Positions 1,942 to 61,232 of a stretch of DNA of 61,232 nucleotides are shown piece by piece. Made by a program: the position numbers and the translations under genes. Source of the DNA: Candidatus Poseidoniales archaeon (GTDB lineage: Archaea; Thermoplasmatota; Poseidoniia; Poseidoniales; Poseidoniaceae). Below the pieces are notes generated by a model. It was not told the DNA's origin. It did no database searches and saw only the letters and a list, made by a program, of their open reading frames with translations. Position 1 is the stretch's first letter. The number at the start of each line of letters is the position of its first letter. The stretch covers positions 5,297 to 66,528 of the forward strand of contig QQRW01000023.1 of NCBI GenBank assembly GCA_003602605.1. Direction: 5' to 3'.

Positions 1942-3369
1942 TCAATCCTTCTTCTCACGACGGCGACGGGGACGCTTCTTTGAATCCTCTTCCTCTTCAC
2001 GAAGTGCTTGGAGTTCACGAGGTGATTTGCCACCGGAATTGTCAGAGCCTCGCTTTCCTCGGTTGTTAGCGCCTTTCTTACCGCCTTGTGACACATCAAC
2101 CTTGATGCGCCTGCCGAGCAATTCAGTTCCGTTGAGTTTGGAGACGATTTCATCACCCTTGTCCGTTTCCTTGATGAAAGCAAACGCGAATCCCTTCGGT
2201 TTTCCGTCACCACTGGTGGCGATAACAAGGCCGTTGATGGTTGCAATACCGTCAAATAAGGCTCGAATGTTTTCTTCAGTTGCTTTGAACGGTAGGTTTC
2301 CGATGTAGAGTTTGAGCCCTTCAGGGTCCTTTCGCTTCTCTCGCTTGCCCTTCTTATCATCGCTGTCTGCATCTCGCACACCGATCTTACGACCGTTGAT
2401 TTTGTGACCATTGAGTTTTTCAGCAGCTGCATCTGCATGTGATTTTTCCGAGTAGGTGACGAAACCGAATCCTCGGTTGACACCGTTGTCATCGGTCAGC
2501 ACAATACAATCGGTCATATCGCCGAACTCAGCAAACAGGGCCCGGAGTTCTTCGGTTCCAACTTCACGTGGTAGGCCACCGACGAACAATCGGCAACCTG
2601 GGGCGTTTCGTGGACGACGACCTTTGCCACCGCTCTCGCCTTCGAATCGGAAATATGTGCGCTCACGGCCGTCTTCTCGGACATCTGCAGCGATGAAGGT
2701 TGCTCGACCAGCAGGGCCTTTTCCAAACATGGCTTCAGCAGCAGCACCCCAGCGCTTACCGGAGTTGTTGAGTGCACTTGCACCTTGCTCAAGTTCAGCC
2801 CATCCTGCGCCATAGTTGTCTGCAAGTGCTCGGTAGGATTGGTAATTACATGTCGGGCATCGGACGTTCCAGTCGCCGTCAAGGTCAGCGACCAACACAT
2901 CGCCACAGGGTGGGCAAATCGCATGAAGTACGCCGCAGTCATCACGGTCTCGGAAACTGATGCGAAGAACAGGAGTTGTTTCTTTGACTTCCGCTCGACA
3001 GACATCTCGTCGTCGAACAGCATCTGCAGTTTGATGCATGTATCGGTCGACAATTCCAGTAACATGGAATTGCCCGTAGAGGTGTTCAGGCAGAACGCTA
3101 CCAGGTTTACCTTCGATGCAAAGAACCTGAGCTTCTCCATTCTTTTCGTTGAGTTTGACAATTTCACAAAGCACGGTATCACCGACTTCTGGCGTGACAA
3201 TTTCCTTTTGAGCAGCAACGGTTGCGATGCCGTCTTGAATTGAAAACATGCCAGTTGCGGTTGCTAAAATCGATCCATTGACTTCAATGGTTCCATCTCC
3301 AGCCTCACATTCTGATGAGGTTGATACTTGTGTTCCGGGGGTGACGAGGCTCGGCGTCATATTTTTCAT
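1942..3369 (-). CDS. csl4: Exosome RNA-binding subunit Csl4 fused to two RRM domains and a Lys/Arg-rich tail
   Basis: N-terminal LVTPG..V..., S1 domain (PEVGDTVLCEIV), zinc ribbon CPPC..CPTC..RALADNY; RRM1 LFVGGL/RGFGFVTY; RRM2 LYIGNL/KGFAFAFI. Start ATG 3369 (alternative 3360). Confidence 0.85.
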   Translation of the reverse strand: MKNMTPSLVTPGTQVSTSSECEAGDGTIEVNGSILATATGMFSIQDGIATVAAQKEIVTPEVGDTVLCEIVKLNEKNGEAQVLCIEGKPGSVLPEHLYGQFHVTGIVDRYMHQTADAVRRRDVCRAEVKETTPVLRISFRDRDDCGVLHAICPPCGDVLVADLDGDWNVRCPTCNYQSYRALADNYGAGWAELEQGASALNNSGKRWGAAAEAMFGKGPAGRATFIAADVREDGRERTYFRFEGESGGKGRRPRNAPGCRLFVGGLPREVGTEELRALFAEFGDMTDCIVLTDDNGVNRGFGFVTYSEKSHADAAAEKLNGHKINGRKIGVRDADSDDKKGKREKRKDPEGLKLYIGNLPFKATEENIRALFDGIATINGLVIATSGDGKPKGFAFAFIKETDKGDEIVSKLNGTELLGRRIKVDVSQGGKKGANNRGKRGSDNSGGKSPRELQALREEEEDSKKRPRRRREKKD

Positions 3370-3470
3370 TCCTGTAGCAAACATGGCCTGATGTAGGTCG
3401 CATGTTGTTTCGCTTGATTGAACCGGTGTGTTCACCCCTTTTCAACCCCTCATACGCAGCAGCCGTGACC

Positions 3471-4124
3471 TCAATCTTCTTCATCGAGCAACTTCGCATC
3501 TCCTGGAAGATGGAAGCGCCAACACAGTACAGTGGTAGCAGCCTTGCGCTTTGTGTGGTGCTGATAGGTTGGTGGAAGGCGGAAATTTGTTTCAAGCATT
3601 GCTTCTGAATCGTAGCCATATTCTCTTCCAAGTGCTTGCAGATGTTTGGATTTTGAACTGTGAAGCACATGGACAACCGGGGCGCCGAGAGAAAAGGCGT
3701 ATTCAAGTAACGGCCTGTCTGCCTTCGGCGTTTGCACACCCCATGGAGGATTCATCACAATAAGATCTGGAATGGGCTCAACATGCCGCGTTTGTTTCGT
3801 CACATGTTCATTCATCACTTCGCCAGTGCCGTTGCATCGTTGGTTGACTCTATCAGTATTTACTCGTGCCACTTCCACGACCTTCGGGTCTGCTTCAATC
3901 ATCGTGACGTGTTCTGCTCCGAGAAACAAGCACCCACATCCAAGGATTCCATTGCCTGCGCCGAGGTCAAGAACCCTTTTTCCTTCCAGCCCATCAACTT
4001 GGTCGATACCAAGAAGCCAATATGACGCAAGGTCACCTTCGGTTGCGTATTGTTCGAGTTCAACAGAGGTGCAAGGGTGTGGGGATAATTTGGACAATTC
4101 TATGGCCAAATGTTTGGGACGCAT
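3471..4124 (-). CDS. METTL5-like (COG2263) SAM-dependent RNA methyltransferase
   Basis: LEQYATEGDLA, VLDLGAGNGILG (motif I), MNPPWG (NPPF/W amino-methyltransferase motif); lies next to csl4 as in the archaeal exosome gene neighbourhood. Confidence 0.85.
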   Translation of the reverse strand: MRPKHLAIELSKLSPHPCTSVELEQYATEGDLASYWLLGIDQVDGLEGKRVLDLGAGNGILGCGCLFLGAEHVTMIEADPKVVEVARVNTDRVNQRCNGTGEVMNEHVTKQTRHVEPIPDLIVMNPPWGVQTPKADRPLLEYAFSLGAPVVHVLHSSKSKHLQALGREYGYDSEAMLETNFRLPPTYQHHTKRKAATTVLCWRFHLPGDAKLLDEED

Positions 4125-4128
4125 TCAA

Positions 4129-4344
4129 TCACCAGCGGGGCTGTTGATTGTATTGGTTTTGCTGGTACTGCTGCTGTTGCTGTTGTTGCGCTAGTGCTTG
4201 CGCTTGTAGGCGCATGTAGTGAATTTGTTCGGCCTCGTGCCGAAGTCGAGCAAGCAACTGGTCTCCTGGTTGTTGGTTTCCACAAAATCTGCAGAAACGA
4301 ATGCCATCTTGGTGTTGTTGTCCGCAACTGATACAGAACCCCAT
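4129..4344 (-). CDS. Small zinc-ribbon protein (71 aa) with Gln-rich C-terminus
   Basis: MGFCISCG...FCRFCG double CxxC; GGAGG RBS-like sequence just upstream of ATG 4344; stop 4 nt from the next gene. Confidence 0.75.
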   Translation of the reverse strand: MGFCISCGQQHQDGIRFCRFCGNQQPGDQLLARLRHEAEQIHYMRLQAQALAQQQQQQQYQQNQYNQQPRW

Positions 4345-4390
4345 GTGCTTGCCTCCATACAGCCCTTGTGCCGAATCAACTTGAACCTTC

Positions 4391-5527
4391 TCATTGCATG
4401 GATGCCAATTGCAGGAACACAGGCCATGTTTCGAAGCCTTCAGCAGTTGCCCTTTCGTTGAGGTTTTCCCAACGAGGGTCATCCATGATATCAGACGCTG
4501 CTACACCTGCGGCTAACAGTCCCGTCACAAGTTCACGGAATTCACGCTCGACTTCAGACATTTCAGGTTCGGGTTCTGGTTCGGGATCTGGAATTGGTAT
4601 GCTCGTTGGAGATTCTTCAACCGATGATTCTACAGGTGAGTTCACCTCGTCGGGCGTCGGTTCTTTTTCAGTTGACTGGGCGCCAGGTGGGAGGGGTACA
4701 AAGGCGTGTTCAACAACAGTAGATTCCGTTTCCACTACGGGTTTAGTCGTAGGCAAATCTACTTGTTCAGTGTTTTCAATGCCCGCATCTTCAGTCATTT
4801 CAGCGAGCATGTTTGTTGAGAAATCATCCATCATTTCATCCATGTTCGCTTCGGATTCTTTCGCCTTAACCGGAGCGGTAATTGGGATGTCTTCGGGAGC
4901 AGCCTCTGTGATTTTCACCTTCTTTTGAAGACGTCCCACACCCAGAACTTCCGCTTGCTGTCGAGCAAGTTCAGCAGCTTGGCGCCGTGGGAGGCTGACG
5001 AAGCATTTCCCAGGTACAGAAGCCGGCGGGAAGGGGAGGTAATAGGTTTCGAGCGGTGGCAAAGACGGATGGCGGAAGCATAGAATCCTCTGTGACTCAA
5101 AGGCTCGTTGACTCGGCAAATTCATCGAGAAAGGAACAGGTGAGATCTGAATCGAACTGCGTAACCACTGCTCGTTGGTGATGAGGTGTTGCATCCATGG
5201 CCCTAAATCAGGGCTGGCTAAGTCGACGAATTGGAACGAAGCATCCCGTGGATTGAAGTTTTGCTTCTCGAGTAAAGGGGCTTCTTGTCGAGGTCGGTGG
5301 AATACGGTGAGAACAGGCTGACCATGTTCAACCATATCGCCGTGTAATTCCATGAGTTTGCGCTCCTTACGAGGGCACATGAGAAGAATGAGCATTCGAG
5401 CGGCGTTCTCATCCCAAATTTCCCCCCATCGAGTCTCAGCCTCGATGGTGAGTTGTCCAAGTGTCATGTCAGGAATCATTGCAGTAATACCCATGTCCGC
5501 ACCAAACCGAGGGTGCGGTCGGGGCAT
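4391..5527 (-). CDS. Hypothetical protein: globular N-terminal domain, acidic/Pro-rich linker, small helical C-terminal domain
   Basis: 378-codon ORF packed between asd and the zinc-ribbon gene; no recognised motif. Confidence 0.7.
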   Translation of the reverse strand: MPRPHPRFGADMGITAMIPDMTLGQLTIEAETRWGEIWDENAARMLILLMCPRKERKLMELHGDMVEHGQPVLTVFHRPRQEAPLLEKQNFNPRDASFQFVDLASPDLGPWMQHLITNEQWLRSSIQISPVPFSMNLPSQRAFESQRILCFRHPSLPPLETYYLPFPPASVPGKCFVSLPRRQAAELARQQAEVLGVGRLQKKVKITEAAPEDIPITAPVKAKESEANMDEMMDDFSTNMLAEMTEDAGIENTEQVDLPTTKPVVETESTVVEHAFVPLPPGAQSTEKEPTPDEVNSPVESSVEESPTSIPIPDPEPEPEPEMSEVEREFRELVTGLLAAGVAASDIMDDPRWENLNERATAEGFETWPVFLQLASMQ

Positions 5528-51556: not shown

Positions 51557-54500
51557 TCATTGAACGGTGAACCAAACGGCTGTTCCATCCACTTCAAAAT
51601 GTTCTGCATTTGATGGTGCATCGCTCGACTCCGAATGGAATACAGCTGCAGCAGCACGTGTTTCAGTGACAATCCATTGCTTGTCTTGTTCGAACATTTC
51701 CGGAGCACTTTTTGTCCATATTTCCAAATCAATTGTTGCCTCAATGGCTAGGTTGAGGTCTTTACGCATAGCTTGTATGCGACGAGTGATGTCTCTTGCA
51801 AGGCCCTTCGACAGCAAATCCGGAGTATCGTTCATGTCGAGAACCAAACTGATTTGTCGTGCTTCACCACCTTGACCTACGGTTACGGTTGAGGCGGCAA
51901 AACCTTCTTTCTCAATACGTCGAACTTCAACATCACTTTCTTCGATAGCAACGCCAAGAATCTCACAGTTTCCTGCTTGAATGGATGCTAGCATTGCTGT
52001 CGGGTCTTTGGCATTCTTGATTTCTCCGGCTACGGCGTTAACTTCACTGCGGGCTTTCGGAGCCAATGCTCGGAAGTTCGGTGCCAATTCAATTTGCTGG
52101 AATCGGTCAAGGTCACTTTCGACTTCGATGGATTCAACATTGAGTTCTTCGGCCAAGATGTCATGGAATTCGGCCATATCTGGGCCAGATACAATCCATC
52201 CCTGTGCGCACGGAAGACGTTGGCGCCGTCCGTTTTCAACACGAATGCGTCGGCCAACTTCGGCGAGTTCACGAACCAAAGCCATTGTTGACTCAAGCAA
52301 GGCATCTTGTGGTGGCAAGTTAGCGGTAGCAGCAGCGGCTTCTTCATCCCAGTTGTCTGCAGTAGCACCGTCAAGGGATCCGGGTATACCGAGTGGCCAT
52401 GCTGCCTGATGTACCGTTTTTCCAGTCAAGTTTCGGTGGATCACATCAACCATGAAAGGGCTCACAGGGGCGACCAGTCGGCAGACGGTGGTGAGTATCT
52501 CGTGAAGTGTGTGCTGGCAAGCTACCTTGTCACTGGTTTCCGCATCGTCCCATAATCTGCGACGGCTTCGTCGCACATACCAATTCGATACATCGTTCAC
52601 GATGAATTCTTCAAGGTCACGGCATGCCTTGTGGAAGTTCCACTGCTTGAAGTCAGCGTGGTAATTCTTAGCAGTGCTCGCCAATCGGGAGAGTATCCAT
52701 CGGTCGAGTGATGAGCGAGATGCTACATCTGATGTTGATTTTTCAGGATCGAATCCGTCAAGGGCAGCATAATCGGCATGGAACTTGTAGACGTTCCATA
52801 GCGTCAGGAACATCTTTGCATAGGTTTCACGAACACCGTTCGAATCAAATTTCAAAGGGTTCCATGGTGCTCCAGCAGTGACCATGTACCATCGTGTTGC
52901 ATCTGCACCTTCACGGTTGAAGTGGTCCCATGGGTCTACAATATTGCCGCGAGATTTCGACATTTTCTTACCCTCGGCATCAAGAATCAAACCGAGACTT
53001 AAGCAACGCTTGTATGCAGGTTGGTCAAACACGGTCGTGGAAACGGCAAGCAGCGTATAGAACCAGCCGCGAGTTTGGTCGACACCTTCGCAGATGTAAT
53101 CGACAGGGAATGAGGCATCGAATGTTTCCTTTCCTTCAAACGGATGATGCCATTGAGCGAAAGGTGCACAGCCAGAATCAAACCAGCAGTCCATCACAAA
53201 AGGTTCTCTGTGCATCGGTTTTCCGTCGTCAGAAACGAGAGTATATCCGTCGACGACTGGACGATGCAGGTCAACATCATCAGGGCATTCGGGGTTTTCG
53301 AAGCCCGCAGCAACAGCCTTTGCAACTTCACTTTGAAGTTCAGCAATTGAGCCGATGCATTTCATGTTGCCTTCATCGTCTCGCCAAACAGGCAGCGGTG
53401 TGCCCCAGTAGCGTTCACGGGAAATAGCCCAGTCTTTGACGTTGCGCAGCCACTCACCAAATCGACCTTCGCCGACCCAGTCGGGTGCCCATTCGACGCC
53501 ATCGTTGAATTGCAACAACCGTTCCTTAACAGCAGTCATTCGAACAAACCATGAATCCATGGCGTAGTAGAGCAACGGGTGGTCTGTTCTCCAGCAGTGC
53601 GGATAATCGTGGAGGTAGGATTTCTCTCTGTACAGCAGCCCACTTTCAGGGCCTTTGCCATTGCTTCCGCCCTTGGCAGAAAGCAATTCAATAACGGTTT
53701 GATCGCATTCTTTGACGTAACGTCCGTCGAGTTGCGGATGCGTTCCGGCGAGGAACGCACCGTCCATGCCGACGGTATGGTGGGCAGGAAGGCCTGCAGC
53801 CATTCCAAGGTTGTAGTCGTCTTCACCGTACATGACAGCGGTATGAACTACGCCAGTACCGTCGGTTGTGGTGACCCAATCAGCTTCGAGAACGGTCCAT
53901 GCAGTTGTAGATTCACCTCGGGGGACGGCGTCCGGGAACAGCGGTTCATAGGATCGACCGACTAAGGATGAACCAGGGAATTCCTCGATAATTTCTACAT
54001 TGTGTCGTAGAACATCTTTCATCAAATCTTTTGCCAGTATCACTTCTTCGCCATCGGATGCGCCTCCAGCACCGATCCAGTTTTCGGCTTGTTCAGTAAT
54101 GCGAACTCGAACATAGGTGACTTCGGGTCCTACTGCTAGACCGACGTTACCCGGTAGTGTCCATGGCGTTGTTGTCCAAGCAAGAATACTAGCATCATCA
54201 TCGCTGAGTTTGAATTTCACATAAACGGAAGGCTCCTCGACTTCCTTGTATCCCAGAGCGACTTCGTGGCTTGAATAGGAAGTACCGGTCTGGGGGCAAT
54301 ACGGTAGAACTTTGTGTCCTCTGTACAACAGTCCTTTGTCAAACATTTGTTTCATTGCCCACCAACACGATTCAACGTAGTTATTGTCAAGTGTGACGTA
54401 AGGATTGTCGAGGTCAACCCAGTAAGCCATTCGCTCAGTCATTTCTCTCCATGCTGATTCATAGGTCCAAACGGAGTCACGGCAGGCTTGGTTGAAGTTG

Positions 54501-54916
54501 TCCATTCCATAAGCCTCGATTGCTTCATTCGACATCAAGTCCATTCGCTTCTGAACTTCGATTTCAACGGGCAAACCATGAGTATCCCAGCCGCCTTTTC
54601 GCTCGACACGGAAGCCTTCCATTGTCTTCCACCGGCATACAAGGTCTTTGTATGCTCGAGCTACGACGTGGTGAATACCGGGTTTTCCATTCGCCGTAGG
54701 AGGTCCTTCGAGGAAGATGAAAGGAGCGCCGTCACCGTTGGAATCGATTGAAGCACGGAATGCATTTTCTTGCTTCCATGTTTCCAATAACGCAGTCTCG
54801 AGTGCAACAGCATCGAGTTCACCTGCCGAATGAGGACGTGCCATAGCCATGCGAGAAGCCTTTTTGTCTTGAACCTCACCCCTCTCAAAGGTGGCATGTT
54901 GAGTTTCCTTTTCCAC
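51557..54916 (-). CDS. ileS: Isoleucine--tRNA ligase (archaeal/eukaryote-type)
   Basis: LEGPPTANGKPGIHH, GWDTHGLPVE, AWTTTPWTLPGN, GTGVVH, DWAISRERYWGTP, DCWFDSG, EGVDQTRGWFY, KMSKSRGN. Confidence 0.98.
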   Translation of the reverse strand: MEKETQHATFERGEVQDKKASRMAMARPHSAGELDAVALETALLETWKQENAFRASIDSNGDGAPFIFLEGPPTANGKPGIHHVVARAYKDLVCRWKTMEGFRVERKGGWDTHGLPVEIEVQKRMDLMSNEAIEAYGMDNFNQACRDSVWTYESAWREMTERMAYWVDLDNPYVTLDNNYVESCWWAMKQMFDKGLLYRGHKVLPYCPQTGTSYSSHEVALGYKEVEEPSVYVKFKLSDDDASILAWTTTPWTLPGNVGLAVGPEVTYVRVRITEQAENWIGAGGASDGEEVILAKDLMKDVLRHNVEIIEEFPGSSLVGRSYEPLFPDAVPRGESTTAWTVLEADWVTTTDGTGVVHTAVMYGEDDYNLGMAAGLPAHHTVGMDGAFLAGTHPQLDGRYVKECDQTVIELLSAKGGSNGKGPESGLLYREKSYLHDYPHCWRTDHPLLYYAMDSWFVRMTAVKERLLQFNDGVEWAPDWVGEGRFGEWLRNVKDWAISRERYWGTPLPVWRDDEGNMKCIGSIAELQSEVAKAVAAGFENPECPDDVDLHRPVVDGYTLVSDDGKPMHREPFVMDCWFDSGCAPFAQWHHPFEGKETFDASFPVDYICEGVDQTRGWFYTLLAVSTTVFDQPAYKRCLSLGLILDAEGKKMSKSRGNIVDPWDHFNREGADATRWYMVTAGAPWNPLKFDSNGVRETYAKMFLTLWNVYKFHADYAALDGFDPEKSTSDVASRSSLDRWILSRLASTAKNYHADFKQWNFHKACRDLEEFIVNDVSNWYVRRSRRRLWDDAETSDKVACQHTLHEILTTVCRLVAPVSPFMVDVIHRNLTGKTVHQAAWPLGIPGSLDGATADNWDEEAAAATANLPPQDALLESTMALVRELAEVGRRIRVENGRRQRLPCAQGWIVSGPDMAEFHDILAEELNVESIEVESDLDRFQQIELAPNFRALAPKARSEVNAVAGEIKNAKDPTAMLASIQAGNCEILGVAIEESDVEVRRIEKEGFAASTVTVGQGGEARQISLVLDMNDTPDLLSKGLARDITRRIQAMRKDLNLAIEATIDLEIWTKSAPEMFEQDKQWIVTETRAAAAVFHSESSDAPSNAEHFEVDGTAVWFTVQ

Positions 54917-54979: not shown

Positions 54980-57900
54980 ATGCTGATGTCGGCAGGGTAT
55001 CGGTTGAAATTGCTATGTTTTCTCATACTTTTCTTGATGTTGACCGGGCCACTGAGTACTTTTCTTGCCTCTACAGCAGAAATGGATACATCCGGTGAAC
55101 TCGAGGAATCTCTCGTTTCATCAGCATCCGGCGGTGACCCAGCCTCACAGTTGTTTTTAGACGGCTCAGGCCTCTACAGTGACGAGTTGACGCTCGATGT
55201 CCCTTCATCGCAACCTGTGACTGATGTCCATCTCTCAATGTCCCCTGGGATCGAGGCTTCATCGAACGGCTTGACGTGGAGTGGTGCTTCGGCGTGGGGG
55301 CACAGCGATGCTGTCAGTGACGGTGCTTCAATCGACGCAGACGGTTACTTGACTGGTTCTCGTGCAGGCACTCTTTGGGATTTTAACACTGGGTTACAAG
55401 GTTGGACTGTATCAAGCTCCTCTTATGTTGGCCTGTATTCGAACACATGCGGTGTCAACGGAACTTCAGGAAGTTCAATCAAAACACAAGCCCCCTCTGC
55501 CTCATCTTCTGAGCATGCAACCTCTCCATCGATCAATCTAGCAGGTGCAAACACCGTTCCGATTCACGTTTGGGTTCGCCAAGGTACTTCCAGTTGCGGA
55601 GAAGAACCGGATACGAACGAAGATCTTCAACTGCGATTCAAGACCGCTTCTGGCTCTTGGACAACGCTCCACACATGGTCTGGCAGCACCTTCAATCAAC
55701 CTCCACAACAATGGTCCGGGACGTTACCTGCAGCTGCATTGCATTCAAGCACTCAAATCCGTATGTTGCAAACCGGTGGTACCGGTTCATCCTACGATTA
55801 CTGGTTCTTTGACGATGTTCGTATCGCTTCCCCTCCGGTATCAAACTGGACAAGTCCGAGTATTGGATGGTCTTCCTCGTCCTCCTTCCAAGTTGCAAAA
55901 ACGATCTACGCACCAATGAACATCGACGCCTATGTACCTGCAGGTGCATCACTTAACTGGACAGTGCTCGATGACAACGGTGTGGAAATTCCAGGCTTTA
56001 CAGGCTCGAATACTTTCGTAGTTCCGCTCCATCTCATCGATGAGTCAGTCCATGATTCGATCCGCATTCGCCTCTCTCTTTCGGCCGGTTCAAATGGAAT
56101 ACTTCCTCTTGTCTATTCGTTGACGGGTGATGGAACAATGTCAACCAGGTATTCCGATTGGCAAAACCTCGGGAATTCTGAGTCGATGTGCGGAATGAAC
56201 GGCCAATTCTCCGCTTATGGCTCCGCCACAACAGTTGATGTTCTCGATCCCGGATGGGCTTACCTTGCTTCTTCTACGGCCGCAACAAACAGTTCACATG
56301 GCACCGGTTTAACCCTTCAAACCAGCCCTTCGCCTTACATTTTAGATGAAGTTGACGGACTATCAAACATCACTTCTGTAGGTTCTTTGTACAGCACTAC
56401 CAGTAACGCCAGAGCGACCAGCGGTGGTAACGGTACTGGCTTGACAGTGTCTACGACAGCTACCTCCGTTACTTCAGGAATCGTGGACGGTTCAAGCCTT
56501 TCAGCGGGAGGCACAGGATACACTTCACAAATCATCTCACCGAGCGGCGGAAGCGGCTCGGGTCTACAGATTCAAACGACTGCTACGCCAATCACTGGTT
56601 CTGGCGCAGTATCTCTCTATTCCTCTTTGAATGGCGGTTCTGGATACACTTCCTCGAACGACGTCGCATTGAGCGGCGGCAACGGTAGCGGTTTGAAAAT
56701 CGACTATACCGCAAGCCCGATTCTCACTGGAATTCCGACCAGTTATTCACTTCTTAACGGTGGAACAAATTACTCGACAACGAGCTTTGCTTTCACAAGC
56801 GGCGGTTCTGGCTCGGGTCTGCGCGTCAGTATTGATTCAGTTTCAGGTGGCGCAGTCACTTCAATTACCATCATTAGCGGTGGTTCAGGTTACGGTTTCT
56901 TCGACAAACTCTACATCTCAGGTGGGGATGCTGACGCATACTTTTACACGACTGGACTCACTGAATCTGGTGGCGTAATCACTTCGATTTCATTCAGCAC
57001 ACCGGGGCTCAACTACGACGTTGGCGATACTCTCAACATACCCGGAGGTGACAGCAATGCCAACTTCACCGTGCTCGATACAAACCGGCAAGGTGGTACC
57101 ATAACCGGTTACACCGTTCTCAGCAACGGCTCGGGGTATGCGGTGAACGATCTTATCGCTCTCTCCGGAGGAGATTTCAACGCTCGTGTGGAAATCGACT
57201 CAGTCTACGCCATTGGTGGCAACCTCACTTCGGTGTCGATTGTCGACCGAGGCTCAGGATATTCAGTGGGTGATCAAATCAATGTATCCGGTGGAAACGG
57301 TGGAATGTTTACGGTTCAATCTGTGCGGAACTGGGGCGGAGAAATACTTTCTCCTCTCGTTCAAGACGGTGGACAATTGTATTCCATCGGCGACGAGGTG
57401 GCAGTGGATGGTGGTGCGCAAAACGCTACAGTTGTCGTCACAGAAATCGATATTGAAGGCTACCGAGGTGATTCTACTTGCTCTGTCACTATGGATTCTC
57501 GACAATTGGTGGCACCAGCATCTCGAGTCACCGGTAGCGTTACAGGTACCAATGTGGAACTCCAGATGTGGGATACTGTGAATGCATCTTGGACGGTTGT
57601 ACCAAACATGGGTGCTTTCGATGTTTCTTCAACGGTACCGATGTATGACCTTCAGTTCCGCCTGGTTCCGTTGAACTCAAGCCTTACCTATTGGACTGTT
57701 GAATCCTTTGAGACCCAAGTTCATTATGGGGAAGTCGCTAGCAATCCACGCTTTGATTTCAACGATGATGGTGATTTTGAATGGGGTGCAGATTTCTCAA
57801 ACATCGGCACTTGGGGCTGGCAGGATGTTTTCTCAAACGGTAACAAGAGCATTTCTGAAACGGTTGGCTCGTCAGGATACGCAACGACCAAAATTCTCGT

Positions 57901-60900
57901 CCCTCTCACCGATCTCCACTCCTTTTCGTTTGGTGTTACGAACGCAGATGCTTCCATTACCGGCTATACCATGATGTATCAGTCACAGATTCTTGCCTCC
58001 GAAACGATGAATGAGACATCACTCATGCATGTTGAACTGAACCAGACAACTCGAGACTACATCGAGCAATCGATTGCTGGCCAAGGCGGTTTGAACCATC
58101 TCGGCACACGGTTTGTGGAAGTCGACATTGAAGTTTATGCATCATCCTCCGTTCAGTTTAGTGGTCTCTTGGTCACCTACGCCGCTCAAGCGTCACAAGC
58201 ATTTGAATCGGATTCTACTTTTGTACTCAATCTTAACGATGCAAGAAGTCTTCTGCCTTTGGTCGGCGGTATGCATGAGATTCCGCTGCCTCTCACTTCC
58301 ACTCAAAAGGGTGGTCTTATCGTCGAAGTACTCGGTCTCAATTCCTCTGCAGTCGTTGTCTTGAACACTGCTACCATTGACCCTGAGGTGGATGTCCTTA
58401 CACCAAGTCAACGGTGGAGAACCATCAGTATGTCGTACTCGGTGATTGGTGTCGCTCCAAGTTCCATCCGTCTTGATGTTCTTGATGATGATCACCATGC
58501 AACATGGACCGTTCCAGTCTCAGGAGCAACACCCTTTGGAACCGGTGATTTTGAACTGATAGAACTGCACCCGACAGAGTCAATCTCTTTGAATCAATCT
58601 GGAACGAGTGTTCTTGTCGATGTGAAATTTAGAATTTTGCCGTTATGGGACGATACGGATACCATGAGAATCACGACAAGGCTCCAACTTTCGAACACCG
58701 TGTACTCCATGCCGAGCACTTTCACATACGGCGTTTTCGGCAACCAAGCCTATGAGAATGATTTGACACTGAACATCATGACCTTCACGAACGCTGACGA
58801 AAACAAAATTTTGGATTCTTCGGACTACTATCTTCTCCCGTACACTAAACTCAACATTTCTGCCTTTGTCGGATTCGAAAACGTCTCTACGATTGACGCT
58901 TTCATGGACGGAGAAGGAATGCTTTCACTTTACAGAGGTGATGTTCTCGTTGCCAACACAACAACACTTGATCAGAATACTTGGGCCTATCAAGATACGG
59001 TTCCGTTTACATTCGGACCACTGACATGGCGCATCGAACTCACCTCTGAAAACGGTTCAGTCCATCCGGATTTCGCCTCTCTCGAACGAACGTTCCACAT
59101 CGACACCATTTCTCCTCGTGTGCTTGAGGTCAACATGGACCGCTACGACCATCGTATGCCGTCAACAACTCAGACGGTCCAAATTCAAATTTCGGACCAA
59201 CCAATTCTTCCAACCAACATTCAAGCCATGGTTTGGCGAGAATGGTTCGATGATGCCAATTCGAATCAGTGGCCAGATGAGGGCGAGTATCAACCCATGT
59301 CGTTGTTCACCCCGAACGATTTGAGCCCACTCATTGGCCAGTACACATTCATGATGGATGATACTGGAGGAAGTCTTGGACAGAAAGTTTCAGTGTATTT
59401 GACTGGCACTGACGAGGCAGGTCATCCTTTGGAATATGGGGGCTCAGATGTCAACGATGGGCACCTGTTCATGTATCAACTCGCAGTCGATGGGGCCCCG
59501 AGTGTGGCACCGAATGCCTATTCCTATACCGACGGAAAGAACCCCTGGCTTCACCCTCAGATGCCCTACACTTTTGATGTTGAACTCACCGAACCAAACG
59601 GTGGTTCTGACCTCACGACAGTCATCGTTGAACTTGCCTCAAACCAAGGTAGTGATCCGTTACCGATTCGTTGGGATTTTGCGACTGGAAATTGTACGAC
59701 GACCAGCCCTCACGTCTTGATTGAAGACTGTCAAATGCTTGGTGCCGATGGTCCAGCCGATCCTTATGAAACCGCTTTGACGCTCAATGTCGATTTCAAG
59801 CTCGCTTGGACAACCCCAGATCTCGGTGAGACACGCAGAGAGCCTGGAATCCGCATGATTGACCGAGCAGGACAGGAAGTTTTCCGTGCGTTCCCTGAAC
59901 ATCGATGGCGTTTCTCCGCTGCTCTTGAAGTTCCGGAAGAAAGCGTTTCGCTTATTCTCTCTCAGGGTGCATTGCTCGGAGATGGTGCCCGTATAGCGCC
60001 AAGCAGTCCGTTCGAAATCGCAGGAAATGTCGTCTTCTCGGAAACGGGAACCGTTCCTGACTTTGATTGTCAAATAGATCTGTTGTTCTCTGGCTCTTCA
60101 TCTTCAGCCAATTCACTTGATGGAGTATGGTCAGTAGCATTACAAGCTCCGTCGACAACCCAGACTATTCCACTCACATGGAAAGTCGGGTGTCTTGAAG
60201 GTCAAGGCATCGATTCCACAGACCTTACCAACGCTGTTCGCTGGATAATTGTTGATGGAACAGGTCCTGAACCCGTAGAAGTTTCGAATCCTCGGCCGTT
60301 TTCAGTACTCGAACCGGAGTCTCACGAAGTGAAAATACTGCTGTCTGAGGCCGGAGGTTTGGACGTCGAATCTCTCGAACTTGTTTGGTGGGTCGAAGAG
60401 AAAGCGACAGGTGACCGACTTCGTAACGGGGTTGAACCATTGAGTTTACTCGGCACAGATCTCTCAGGATTACGACTCGAAGTAATCGGCTCTTTTGACC
60501 TCAGCGAAATTACCAACGAAATGCTAGAGAACAGACTTTCTGTGCACATTTATGTCTCTGGGCGTGACCTTGCAGGAAATGAAGTCCTCGGTATAAACGG
60601 TGCCGAACCTGGCACTCCAGTTGCTGTCTGGGACATGATTTGGCTGAAGCCTGAGTTTGAATTACAGAGCACTTCCATTACGTATTCACGATATTTAATC
60701 GAACTTGGACAAACTTCTATCGTTACCGCCTATGTTGAAAATACAGGCACTCTCGATGGCTCGGTTGAGGTGATTTTCACCGAAGTACAAGCCACAGGTG
60801 AACGCTCAAATCTACAACGGATTACCGTTGAAGTGCCTCTTGGAGGCATAGTACCGGTTGCTACGGACTGGAACCCTTCACAAACTGGTTTGCAATGGAT

Positions 60901-61232
60901 CGAAGTTCAAATCGAGGGAGATTCAAGTTCGATTGGTCCATCCATCGATGTTCGCCCATCGCGCGAAGTCTCATTTTCTGAGCAAATGTTTGGTGATGTA
61001 CACCCGTTGCTGGGTAGTTTAGCGGCGTTACTCTTCGTTTCCATCATTATTACCGGTCTTCTCTGGGCCCGTCGAAAGACTCTCAATCGCGGTTCTAAAG
61101 CTGAATACGATTGGGATGAATACTCCTCTGAACTCGAATATGAAGACGAAGAGGAAGAATACGATGATGAAGATGACGACGACACTGTTCCGGAGTCGAC
61201 GACTCAGGCTGCAGCAGCAACCGTCGCAGTAA
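54980..61232 (+). CDS. Giant (>2080 aa, partial) secreted surface protein with reelin-like module, phage-structural-type repeats, Ig-like/CARDB domains, TM helix and acidic tail
   Basis: ATG 54980 with signal peptide (RLKLLCFLILFLMLTGPLS). Hand translation of the start, middle and end stays in one frame, and the ORF track lists no terminated ORF in that frame. TM LLGSLAALLFVSIIITGLLWARRK at about 61005-61075, then EYEDEEEEYDDEDDDD; runs off the window. Confidence 0.88.
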   Translation, partial: MLMSAGYRLKLLCFLILFLMLTGPLSTFLASTAEMDTSGELEESLVSSASGGDPASQLFLDGSGLYSDELTLDVPSSQPVTDVHLSMSPGIEASSNGLTWSGASAWGHSDAVSDGASIDADGYLTGSRAGTLWDFNTGLQGWTVSSSSYVGLYSNTCGVNGTSGSSIKTQAPSASSSEHATSPSINLAGANTVPIHVWVRQGTSSCGEEPDTNEDLQLRFKTASGSWTTLHTWSGSTFNQPPQQWSGTLPAAALHSSTQIRMLQTGGTGSSYDYWFFDDVRIASPPVSNWTSPSIGWSSSSSFQVAKTIYAPMNIDAYVPAGASLNWTVLDDNGVEIPGFTGSNTFVVPLHLIDESVHDSIRIRLSLSAGSNGILPLVYSLTGDGTMSTRYSDWQNLGNSESMCGMNGQFSAYGSATTVDVLDPGWAYLASSTAATNSSHGTGLTLQTSPSPYILDEVDGLSNITSVGSLYSTTSNARATSGGNGTGLTVSTTATSVTSGIVDGSSLSAGGTGYTSQIISPSGGSGSGLQIQTTATPITGSGAVSLYSSLNGGSGYTSSNDVALSGGNGSGLKIDYTASPILTGIPTSYSLLNGGTNYSTTSFAFTSGGSGSGLRVSIDSVSGGAVTSITIISGGSGYGFFDKLYISGGDADAYFYTTGLTESGGVITSISFSTPGLNYDVGDTLNIPGGDSNANFTVLDTNRQGGTITGYTVLSNGSGYAVNDLIALSGGDFNARVEIDSVYAIGGNLTSVSIVDRGSGYSVGDQINVSGGNGGMFTVQSVRNWGGEILSPLVQDGGQLYSIGDEVAVDGGAQNATVVVTEIDIEGYRGDSTCSVTMDSRQLVAPASRVTGSVTGTNVELQMWDTVNASWTVVPNMGAFDVSSTVPMYDLQFRLVPLNSSLTYWTVESFETQVHYGEVASNPRFDFNDDGDFEWGADFSNIGTWGWQDVFSNGNKSISETVGSSGYATTKILVPLTDLHSFSFGVTNADASITGYTMMYQSQILASETMNETSLMHVELNQTTRDYIEQSIAGQGGLNHLGTRFVEVDIEVYASSSVQFSGLLVTYAAQASQAFESDSTFVLNLNDARSLLPLVGGMHEIPLPLTSTQKGGLIVEVLGLNSSAVVVLNTATIDPEVDVLTPSQRWRTISMSYSVIGVAPSSIRLDVLDDDHHATWTVPVSGATPFGTGDFELIELHPTESISLNQSGTSVLVDVKFRILPLWDDTDTMRITTRLQLSNTVYSMPSTFTYGVFGNQAYENDLTLNIMTFTNADENKILDSSDYYLLPYTKLNISAFVGFENVSTIDAFMDGEGMLSLYRGDVLVANTTTLDQNTWAYQDTVPFTFGPLTWRIELTSENGSVHPDFASLERTFHIDTISPRVLEVNMDRYDHRMPSTTQTVQIQISDQPILPTNIQAMVWREWFDDANSNQWPDEGEYQPMSLFTPNDLSPLIGQYTFMMDDTGGSLGQKVSVYLTGTDEAGHPLEYGGSDVNDGHLFMYQLAVDGAPSVAPNAYSYTDGKNPWLHPQMPYTFDVELTEPNGGSDLTTVIVELASNQGSDPLPIRWDFATGNCTTTSPHVLIEDCQMLGADGPADPYETALTLNVDFKLAWTTPDLGETRREPGIRMIDRAGQEVFRAFPEHRWRFSAALEVPEESVSLILSQGALLGDGARIAPSSPFEIAGNVVFSETGTVPDFDCQIDLLFSGSSSSANSLDGVWSVALQAPSTTQTIPLTWKVGCLEGQGIDSTDLTNAVRWIIVDGTGPEPVEVSNPRPFSVLEPESHEVKILLSEAGGLDVESLELVWWVEEKATGDRLRNGVEPLSLLGTDLSGLRLEVIGSFDLSEITNEMLENRLSVHIYVSGRDLAGNEVLGINGAEPGTPVAVWDMIWLKPEFELQSTSITYSRYLIELGQTSIVTAYVENTGTLDGSVEVIFTEVQATGERSNLQRITVEVPLGGIVPVATDWNPSQTGLQWIEVQIEGDSSSIGPSIDVRPSREVSFSEQMFGDVHPLLGSLAALLFVSIIITGLLWARRKTLNRGSKAEYDWDEYSSELEYEDEEEEYDDEDDDDTVPESTTQAAAATVAV
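56225..57460 (+). repeat. About 10 degenerate ~40-aa coding repeats, consensus GG.VTS.T....GGSGY.VGD.I..SGG.G.G..V
   Basis: Examples: GGAVTSITIISGGSGYGFFDKLYISGG; GGTITGYTVLSNGSGYAVNDLIALSGG; GGNLTSVSIVDRGSGYSVGDQINVSGG; SGGNGTGLTV; SGGSGSGLQI; SGGNGSGLKI; SGGSGSGLRV. Confidence 0.85.

Follow-up and report, generated by a model that had tools for sequence, protein, structure and literature searches.

The 61,232-nucleotide stretch of DNA examined here (the window) belongs to contig C16 (GenBank QQRW01000023.1) in the 2.02-Mb assembly of a Poseidoniaceae (Marine Group II) archaeon, and its forward strand ends in the gene of a giant surface protein (54980..61232, +). The frame is uninterrupted over 54980..61231 (+), which amounts to 2084 codons in the window with no in-frame stop, and continues for 45 codons beyond it to a stop at C16:66665, 137 nt past the window end, giving a protein of 2129 amino acids in total. 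Set into this protein is a block of nine repeat units of about 41 residues, with a degenerate tenth ahead of them. The block is a lineage-specific insertion in a conserved giant surface protein; its distribution among carriers is limited and non-monophyletic, and it is real, maintained by purifying selection and not foreign in composition.

The insert as a whole (aa ~396-830, 56165..57469, +) was delimited from BLAST high-scoring segment pair maps, a junction alignment and its presence or absence in 249 genomes of the family. It begins with a leader of ~65 residues (aa 396-460, 56165..56359, +), placed by the junction alignment, in which one degenerate unit lies at aa ~425-460 (GWAYLASSTAATNSSHGTGLTLQTS). 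The nine clear units follow (aa 461-827, 56360..57460, +) and were characterized by unit alignment, a hidden Markov model (HMM), AlphaFold and dN/dS. Starting at window positions 56360, 56480, 56606, 56732, 56852, 56975, 57098, 57221 and 57341, they are 40-42 residues long and share the consensus ..TS.S...GGSGY...D....SGG.G....V......GG, with invariant Gly, Tyr and Gly-Gly positions. An HMM built from the array recovers every unit at an i-E of 5e-8 to 5e-16 and detects a unit at the leader position in the orthologues P0010 and P0011. A sequence-only reading of this DNA, made before the present analysis, had counted about 10 units of ~40 residues, in agreement with nine clear units and one degenerate one; it had placed them at 56225-57460, of which the end matches, whereas the start falls in the non-repeat leader, ahead of the first clear unit at 56360.

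Two subtypes make up the array. Units 1-4 are of a Thr-rich 'SGGxGxGL' type (…GGxGY…SGGxGxGL.V.T.A.PIT.G), and units 5-9 of a second type (…GxGYxVGDxIxVxGGDxNAxFxV…GG). Pairwise identity among units is only 22-49%, and Tandem Repeats Finder detected no periodicity in the array DNA; it follows that the array is old and free of ongoing homogenization. As a separate observation, the insert (56165-57469) holds 10 N-x-S/T sequons in 435 residues, or 23 per 1000, compared with 12 per 1000 in the whole protein and 5.4 per 1000 in the long open reading frames (ORFs) of the genome. This enrichment would fit heavy N-glycosylation but may merely reflect a composition rich in Asn, Ser, Thr and Gly.

The insert separates a head module (aa ~35-395, 55082..56164, +; 33-50% identity to block-less orthologues) from a conserved ectodomain body, or stalk, of ~1200 residues (aa ~831-2009, 57470..61006, +; 30-60% identity to block-less orthologues over aa ~830-2050). 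The whole protein was searched against 151 Poseidoniales genomes and the block alone against 249 genomes of the family, and 49 full-length orthologues were extracted. A relative of the host protein was found in 103 of the 151 genomes, and nearly all of these matches, in frames of 1700-1740 residues, are limited to aa ~1-400 and ~830-2083. In the interval that corresponds to query residues 385-905, block-less orthologues have ~95-130 residues as against 520 here, and only a ~25-residue linker stands in place of the insert. The full block is present in eight genomes of the same genus (g1), at 54-91% identity, one of them with two copies, and a shorter block in two genomes of a second genus (g4), at 37-38% identity over ~350 residues. 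Across the 49 orthologues, the unit HMM finds nine units in each of the nine g1 carriers, five or six in the two g4 carriers and none in the remaining 38. The comparison thus bears out the earlier description of the block as discrete, in the sense of being present or absent among orthologues. The suggestion that it might be a variable cassette among strains holds only as far as its presence varies between lineages: each g1 carrier has the same nine copies, down to orthologues of 54% identity, and strain-level variability finds no support. The genome with two full block-bearing copies (G208; contigs C54 and C60, loci L033 and L034) has an isoleucyl-tRNA synthetase (IleRS) and an NAD synthetase (NadE) gene flanking each of them; the copies are 92.6 and 85.6% identical to the query and a bin of mixed populations is a more probable source of the pair than a duplication.

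The g1 and g4 blocks are inserted at the same point, between a head end '…SGDG…F…W' and a small domain starting '…TSPWF', and are colinear unit by unit. Exactly the same junction has received something else in another genus, in which two genomes (G080 and G110) carry seven and three copies, respectively, of an unrelated Cys-containing unit of ~117 residues. Repeat arrays have thus been taken up repeatedly at the head/body junction, which marks this site as permissive. The ~117-residue arrays occupy aa ~440-1240 of the ORF in G080 (contig C53, L048) and aa ~430-740 of that in G110 (contig C48, L049); each unit has two Cys residues and the motif C.VHA…F.G…C…W.L…SG…W.N…G.Y…W.N..T..W.

In a maximum-likelihood tree of the body, the carriers fall into two clades, both of them surrounded by non-carriers from the respective genus, and a single origin of all carriers on this tree was rejected (lnL difference 709; approximately unbiased test, p 1.6e-7). 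Parsimony on the same tree calls for two changes. Taken together, the colinearity of the blocks and a divergence like that of their flanks suggest one original array, which was passed between lineages at an early date or else obtained from a shared donor. An older history can also be envisaged, in which the common ancestor of the Poseidoniaceae genera already possessed the array and most lineages later lost it by precise deletion. The shared junction and unit-by-unit colinearity of the g1 and g4 blocks speak for it, as do a block identity (37-38%) close to that of the rest of the protein (36-41%) and a third, divergent orthologue, the metagenome fragment P0012 (27% overall identity), with an even longer block at the same site. 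We nevertheless regard such a history as distinctly unlikely: the body tree would demand roughly ten independent, scar-free deletions, a less parsimonious course than two changes; all of the deep branches (genera g3 and g5-g8 and the sister family) are without any unit; and other lineages have gained a different array at the site, so gains do occur there.

That the block might be an assembly chimera or the product of a mis-joined contig is an explanation to which we give practically no credence, and it was rejected on several grounds. Single contigs from two independent studies cover 55700-57900, including both junctions, with zero differences, and the stretch recurs in no fewer than 19 marine metagenome runs, drawn from at least six studies. 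The same architecture recurs in eight genomes and many metagenome proteins, and the frame is intact and under purifying selection: compared with five close orthologues, dN/dS is 0.11-0.13 for the block, 0.05-0.10 for the head and ~0.05 for the body. Block GC and GC3 (GC at third codon positions) equal those of the flanks, and no island-like polymorphism was seen at the block in four metagenome runs.

The remainder of the protein is consistent with a cell-surface location. A hydrophobic, signal-like segment (aa 9-31, 55004..55072, +) precedes the head, inside which a Reelin-subrepeat-B-like beta-sandwich (aa 177-282, 55508-55825, +) is matched by Pfam PF21471 at an E-value of 4.8e-6 and 26.8 bits, against a cut-off of 27. 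The long ectodomain is rich in Ser, Thr and Gly. Beyond the body lie a hydrophobic transmembrane helix (aa 2010-2029, 61007..61066, +), a basic RRK stop-transfer sequence and an acidic tail (aa 2042-2068, 61103-61183, +); these terminal features, like the signal-like segment, were read directly from the sequence, from which we predict that the protein is anchored at its C terminus, with the N-terminal head distal to the membrane. The sequence-only reading had likewise described a giant, membrane-anchored surface protein. A Pfam scan of the host protein (2084 residues) gave no baseplate or virion domain outside the repeats and no Por_Secre_tail domain. Just past the window end, an N run (translated X) of ~20 codons within aa 2085-2104 interrupts the C-terminal tail, where a scaffold gap is possible. 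The genome also encodes a 1689-residue paralogue of the body (G000:C9:9850-13344; 26% identity to aa 885-2030), and a body paralogue of similar length is found in most genomes of the family.

The neighbourhood is that of a cellular gene. Divergently oriented upstream is the IleRS gene (51557..54916, -), identified from its translation and used as a synteny marker, and downstream are the NadE gene and a rhodanese-like gene; all neighbours are cellular, and the block stands without flanking viral genes, as had been stated before. Among the 49 loci examined, IleRS adjoins the gene in 43 and NadE in 46, block-bearing and block-less versions alike. All versions thus lie between IleRS and NadE and are therefore positional orthologues.

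The repeats themselves had been likened to virion proteins of marine T4-like phages, and this likeness is real. Profile matches of the block to PHROG families range from 1e-11 to 2e-4 (phrog_26741, 1.2e-11; phrog_701, 9e-11; phrog_460, 1e-10; phrog_19630, 1.4e-9; phrog_6005, 4.7e-8; phrog_708, 2.7e-5); these families are virion structural, baseplate-wedge and tail-fibre proteins, and the matches are confined to the repeat block. With tblastn, the block matched the tail-sheath proteins of two Synechococcus phages, S-CAM1 and S-CAM3. The 806-residue sheath of S-CAM1 (L314, coding sequence 2185-4605) contains four units at aa ~200-355, the place of domain I in T4 gp18, with the Thr-rich subtype first and the GD…DATF subtype second, which is the order of the archaeal block. 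A 2848-residue relative is encoded between gp25/gp6 and gp8 genes, in the position of gp7, and another relative adjoins gp8-like and Peptidase_S74 genes. A Foldseek search of BFVD with the block model returned 19 matches at E<=1e-3, all of them phage structural proteins, the best being from Synechococcus phage ACG-2014e (1.2e-12). Scans with a degenerate DNA motif, for which 120 loci each were listed from IMG/VR and from cellular genomes, confirmed the unit in at least 81 viral loci (81 of the 120 among the matches listed); these counts are lower bounds, and the viral and cellular densities are not comparable. A single-protein scan of IMG/VR with the block gave 12 pattern matches, none of which was confirmed, and tblastn of the phage collection produced no matching record named as an archaeal virus. 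Viral homologues, PHROG families and cyanophage sheaths among them, thus exist alongside the cellular ones.

In the giant virion or baseplate-wedge (gp7-like) proteins of T4-like marine myoviruses, which are 1300-3500 residues long, the same unit occurs in scattered runs with a period of ~39-41 residues (PHROGs 701, 6005, 19630, 708, 438 and 460, and the context of Pfam PF23786, were compared). The likeness to these proteins is confined to the repeats, and the archaeal protein differs from them in being without baseplate domains or viral neighbours.

Among curated families, Pfam Gp18_dom_I (PF22639) alone gives a signal, scoring 18.3 bits on the block (E 0.0023) and 25.9 bits on units 6-8 (E 9.5e-6), where the gathering threshold is 27 bits; no Pfam or NCBIfam model reaches threshold on the block. 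Among 48 diverse three-unit relatives, 20 match PF22639 at E<0.01, always over profile positions ~5-24 of 93 only. The AlphaFold model of the block is all-beta, with about three strands per unit (pLDDT 66, pTM 0.35), as is a three-unit model built with a 48-sequence alignment (pLDDT 78, pTM 0.56). The top PDB matches of the latter in Foldseek are T4 gp18 structures (3foa, 3j2m and 3fo8; probability 1.00, TM-score 0.45-0.48, 21% identity, E 0.07-0.1). The whole-block model found nothing below E 0.05 in the PDB, and a sequence search of the PDB with the block gave a chance antibody match only. Taken together, these models make a remote relation of the units to the exposed outer domain I of the myovirus sheath protein gp18 credible but unproven. 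The G-x-G-Y-x-V-G-D...G-G motif at profile positions 5-24 is common to both, and the archaeal units are modelled with a small, all-beta architecture that may resemble that of the solvent-exposed gp18 domain I (PF22639; 3foa, 3fo8). On the other hand, only about 20 of the 93 profile positions are matched, at a score below the gathering cut-off; the motif is iterated nine to ten times in the archaeon as a 41-residue tandem repeat; and the array belongs to a transmembrane-anchored cellular protein encoded between IleRS and NadE, not to a contractile sheath.

The unit is equally at home in cellular proteins. An exhaustive search of 1.84 billion representatives returned 526 clusters at E<=1e-3, and a custom HMM for the C-terminal domain of the type IX secretion system (T9SS) flags 14 of 150 representatives among the matches listed. 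Eight of the ten closest relatives of ~900 residues have a T9SS sorting domain (Por_Secre_tail), several of them together with PA or discoidin domains, and are secreted proteins of Bacteroidota type. In the motif scan of cellular genomes, the unit was confirmed in at least 91 loci (91 of 120 among the matches listed), mostly from Flavobacteriales; 73 of these loci are from Bacteroidota and nine from Poseidoniales-type archaea. The Bacteroidota T9SS proteins are, by score, the closest non-archaeal relatives, carry 3-8 near-perfect 'GYxVGDxITIxGGxxDATFxV' units and are likewise extracellular and adhesin- or hydrolase-like. They differ from the archaeal protein in belonging to another domain of life, in having a T9SS sorting domain in place of a transmembrane helix and in the remainder of the protein. 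Small ORFs of ~230-260 residues with one or two units are very common in Flavobacterium genomes (L197-L313). One 917-residue metagenome protein with a T9SS sorting domain, P0059, has repeats at aa ~64-376 and a weak Reelin-subrepeat-B-like domain at aa 452-548 (E 0.0046), and so pairs two modules that also lie side by side in the archaeal protein.

Nor is the unit foreign to the Poseidoniales at large. With a broader three-unit profile, it was found in other proteins of 95 of the 151 Poseidoniales genomes, from both families; these proteins are giants of ~2700 residues (Poseidoniaceae) or ~2400 residues (the sister family), together with ORFs of ~220 residues. Elsewhere in the genome studied here, the array unit HMM detects only two weak units, both in a 2718-residue ORF on contig C37. 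This ORF (C37:1081-9234), which lies outside the window, combines thrombospondin-type-3-like DxDxDG repeats with the two units (…SGGLNYIAGTGVATSGVNGVGLTVDTT…GEILTATLASGGYGYSVGDDISILGGNSGAAIIV), and its family (relatives L022-L031) is ~2700 residues long across the Poseidoniaceae, with a ~2400-residue counterpart in the sister family. Thrombospondin-type genes of Poseidoniales have been treated as adhesion genes (Rinke et al. 2018, PMC6461757). These thrombospondin-type-3-repeat giants come from the same organisms and resemble the host protein in being very large surface proteins with the repeat unit, but they have only two or three units, placed among calcium-binding DxDxDG repeats, and are not orthologous to the host protein. 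Many Poseidoniales genomes also have small ORFs of ~215-270 residues with about two units, several of them ~19 kb downstream of the giant gene (examples are G082:C2:78237-78503, L328; G060:C14:30738-30974, L327; and G054:C25:80637-80837).

These distributions bear directly on the earlier proposal that the module is virus-derived. In its specific form, the array would have been captured from a tailed virus, either a cyanophage-like myovirus or a Marine Group II virus, and co-opted as a stalk or adhesin. It draws strength from the fact that the curated or annotated relatives are without exception phage proteins (PHROG, Gp18_dom_I and BFVD), from the relative in a gp25-gp6-(gp7-like)-gp8 context, from the four-unit cyanophage sheaths with their matching subtype order and from the IMG/VR loci confirmed to carry the unit. 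Against this, the unit is equally common in cellular genomes among the matches listed, as the Flavobacteriales loci testify; T9SS cargo and the other proteins of 95 Poseidoniales genomes carry it as well; no viral genes lie nearby, the composition is not foreign and no archaeal-virus-named record was matched in the phage collection. A unit-by-unit nearest-neighbour comparison favours no source, with best scores for viral, Bacteroidota and T9SS proteins about equal (36-45 bits) and those for a much smaller Poseidoniales sample slightly lower. The unit is equally present in T9SS cargo and in other Poseidoniales giants, so a viral origin is unproven, and we judge capture from a virus to be rather unlikely. 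A cellular donor, such as the organism's own thrombospondin-repeat giant with its two units, is at least as likely as a virus. More generally, a 'phage-like' repeat in a cellular protein is by itself no proof of viral origin.

A bolder version would see the unit as a mobile 'surface bead', moving between marine phage virions and bacterial or archaeal surface proteins, with the Poseidoniaceae array acquired from a virus and placed at the tip of the main surface protein, where it might engage phage-tail ligands or hinder phage adsorption. We consider this a long shot, but if true it would represent a cross-domain, virus-to-cell exaptation of a tail-decoration domain.

What, then, might the array do? 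The reading we favour, and hold to be probable though well short of certain, is that the nine all-beta units, with the degenerate tenth, belong to a widespread, uncurated extracellular family and were inserted by domain shuffling at a permissive junction, where they serve as a stalk extension, an adhesive module or both. In molecular terms, shuffling would have placed the array, in full in one g1 sub-clade and in shortened but colinear form in one g4 sub-clade, at the point where, in a conserved and vertically inherited surface protein of ~1700 residues, the membrane-distal head meets the long body. There, it would form a semi-rigid string of small, beta-barrel-like beads, lengthening the ectodomain by ~435 residues, or about a quarter. 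The longer ectodomain would hold the head farther from the membrane, and the array may also, or instead, add weak, multivalent adhesion to glycans or particles. Stalk extension is suggested because the scaffold residues (Gly, Tyr and alternating hydrophobics) are conserved under purifying selection, because phage tails, secreted surface proteins of bacteria and thrombospondin-repeat giants also bear the unit, and because other lineages have received an unrelated array at this site. By analogy, such decoration modules are thought to act alike on phage tails and secreted bacterial adhesins, and a role as spacer or adhesion module appears likeliest.

Several observations weigh against this reading. 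The spacer or adhesion role is argued from analogy. Copy number is invariant, unlike that of classical length-variable stalk proteins. The Gp18_dom_I match stays below its gathering score (25.9 versus 27 bits), AlphaFold confidence is moderate, and the PDB matches fall short of E-value significance. Furthermore, identity between the colinear g1 and g4 blocks (37-38%) is much the same as in the flanking protein (36-41%), a divergence that also fits an old insertion followed by many clean losses.

An altogether different function, also raised in the sequence-only reading, is that of a decoy or receptor mimic, in which the array would imitate a phage or host surface structure and so disturb viral adsorption or grazer recognition. 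The predicted membrane-distal location, a repeat type common to proteins of the phage adsorption apparatus and the raised sequon density of the insert (23 against a background of 5.4 per 1000 residues) could be cited in its favour. A decoy would, though, sit uneasily with a dN/dS of ~0.12 and no diversifying selection, with the lack of copy-number or sequence hypervariability among close relatives and with the absence of island-like polymorphism in the four metagenome runs, and we think it very unlikely.

The preferred reading, of an array inserted by shuffling as a stalk or adhesive module, has a parallel in the 'periscope proteins', reportedly described by Whelan and colleagues in 2021 as length-variable stalk adhesins of bacteria. 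There too, an array separates a distal functional head from an anchor close to the membrane or wall, although the topology of the archaeal protein is a prediction; and, as in those proteins, array content differs, here between lineages, with one junction accepting different arrays. The differences are equally clear. In the archaeal case it is the presence and type of array that vary, between species and genera, rather than the number of units among strains. The units have, moreover, diverged over a long time to 22-49% identity instead of being near-identical, and no tandem repeat is detected at the level of DNA. The only hints that the host protein may be an archaeal S-layer or surface glycoprotein are its order-wide conservation, its predicted C-terminal anchor and its enriched sequons.

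The shuffling of repeat modules in surface proteins is a known phenomenon, of which the archaeal block is a variant; our literature search found no description of the 41-residue repeat or of its host protein. The repeat is without a curated family, although it is often encountered in structural proteins of cyanophages, in secreted proteins of Bacteroidota and in adhesin-like proteins of Poseidoniales. If it were defined as a family, taking gp18 domain I as the closest relative of solved structure, many giants now labelled 'virion structural' or 'hypothetical' would be better annotated. Few uncultured members of the plankton are as abundant as the Marine Group II archaea, whose cell surface is almost undescribed. 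A conserved, syntenic giant protein with a distal junction that accepts different arrays provides a natural experiment on the diversification of their envelope.

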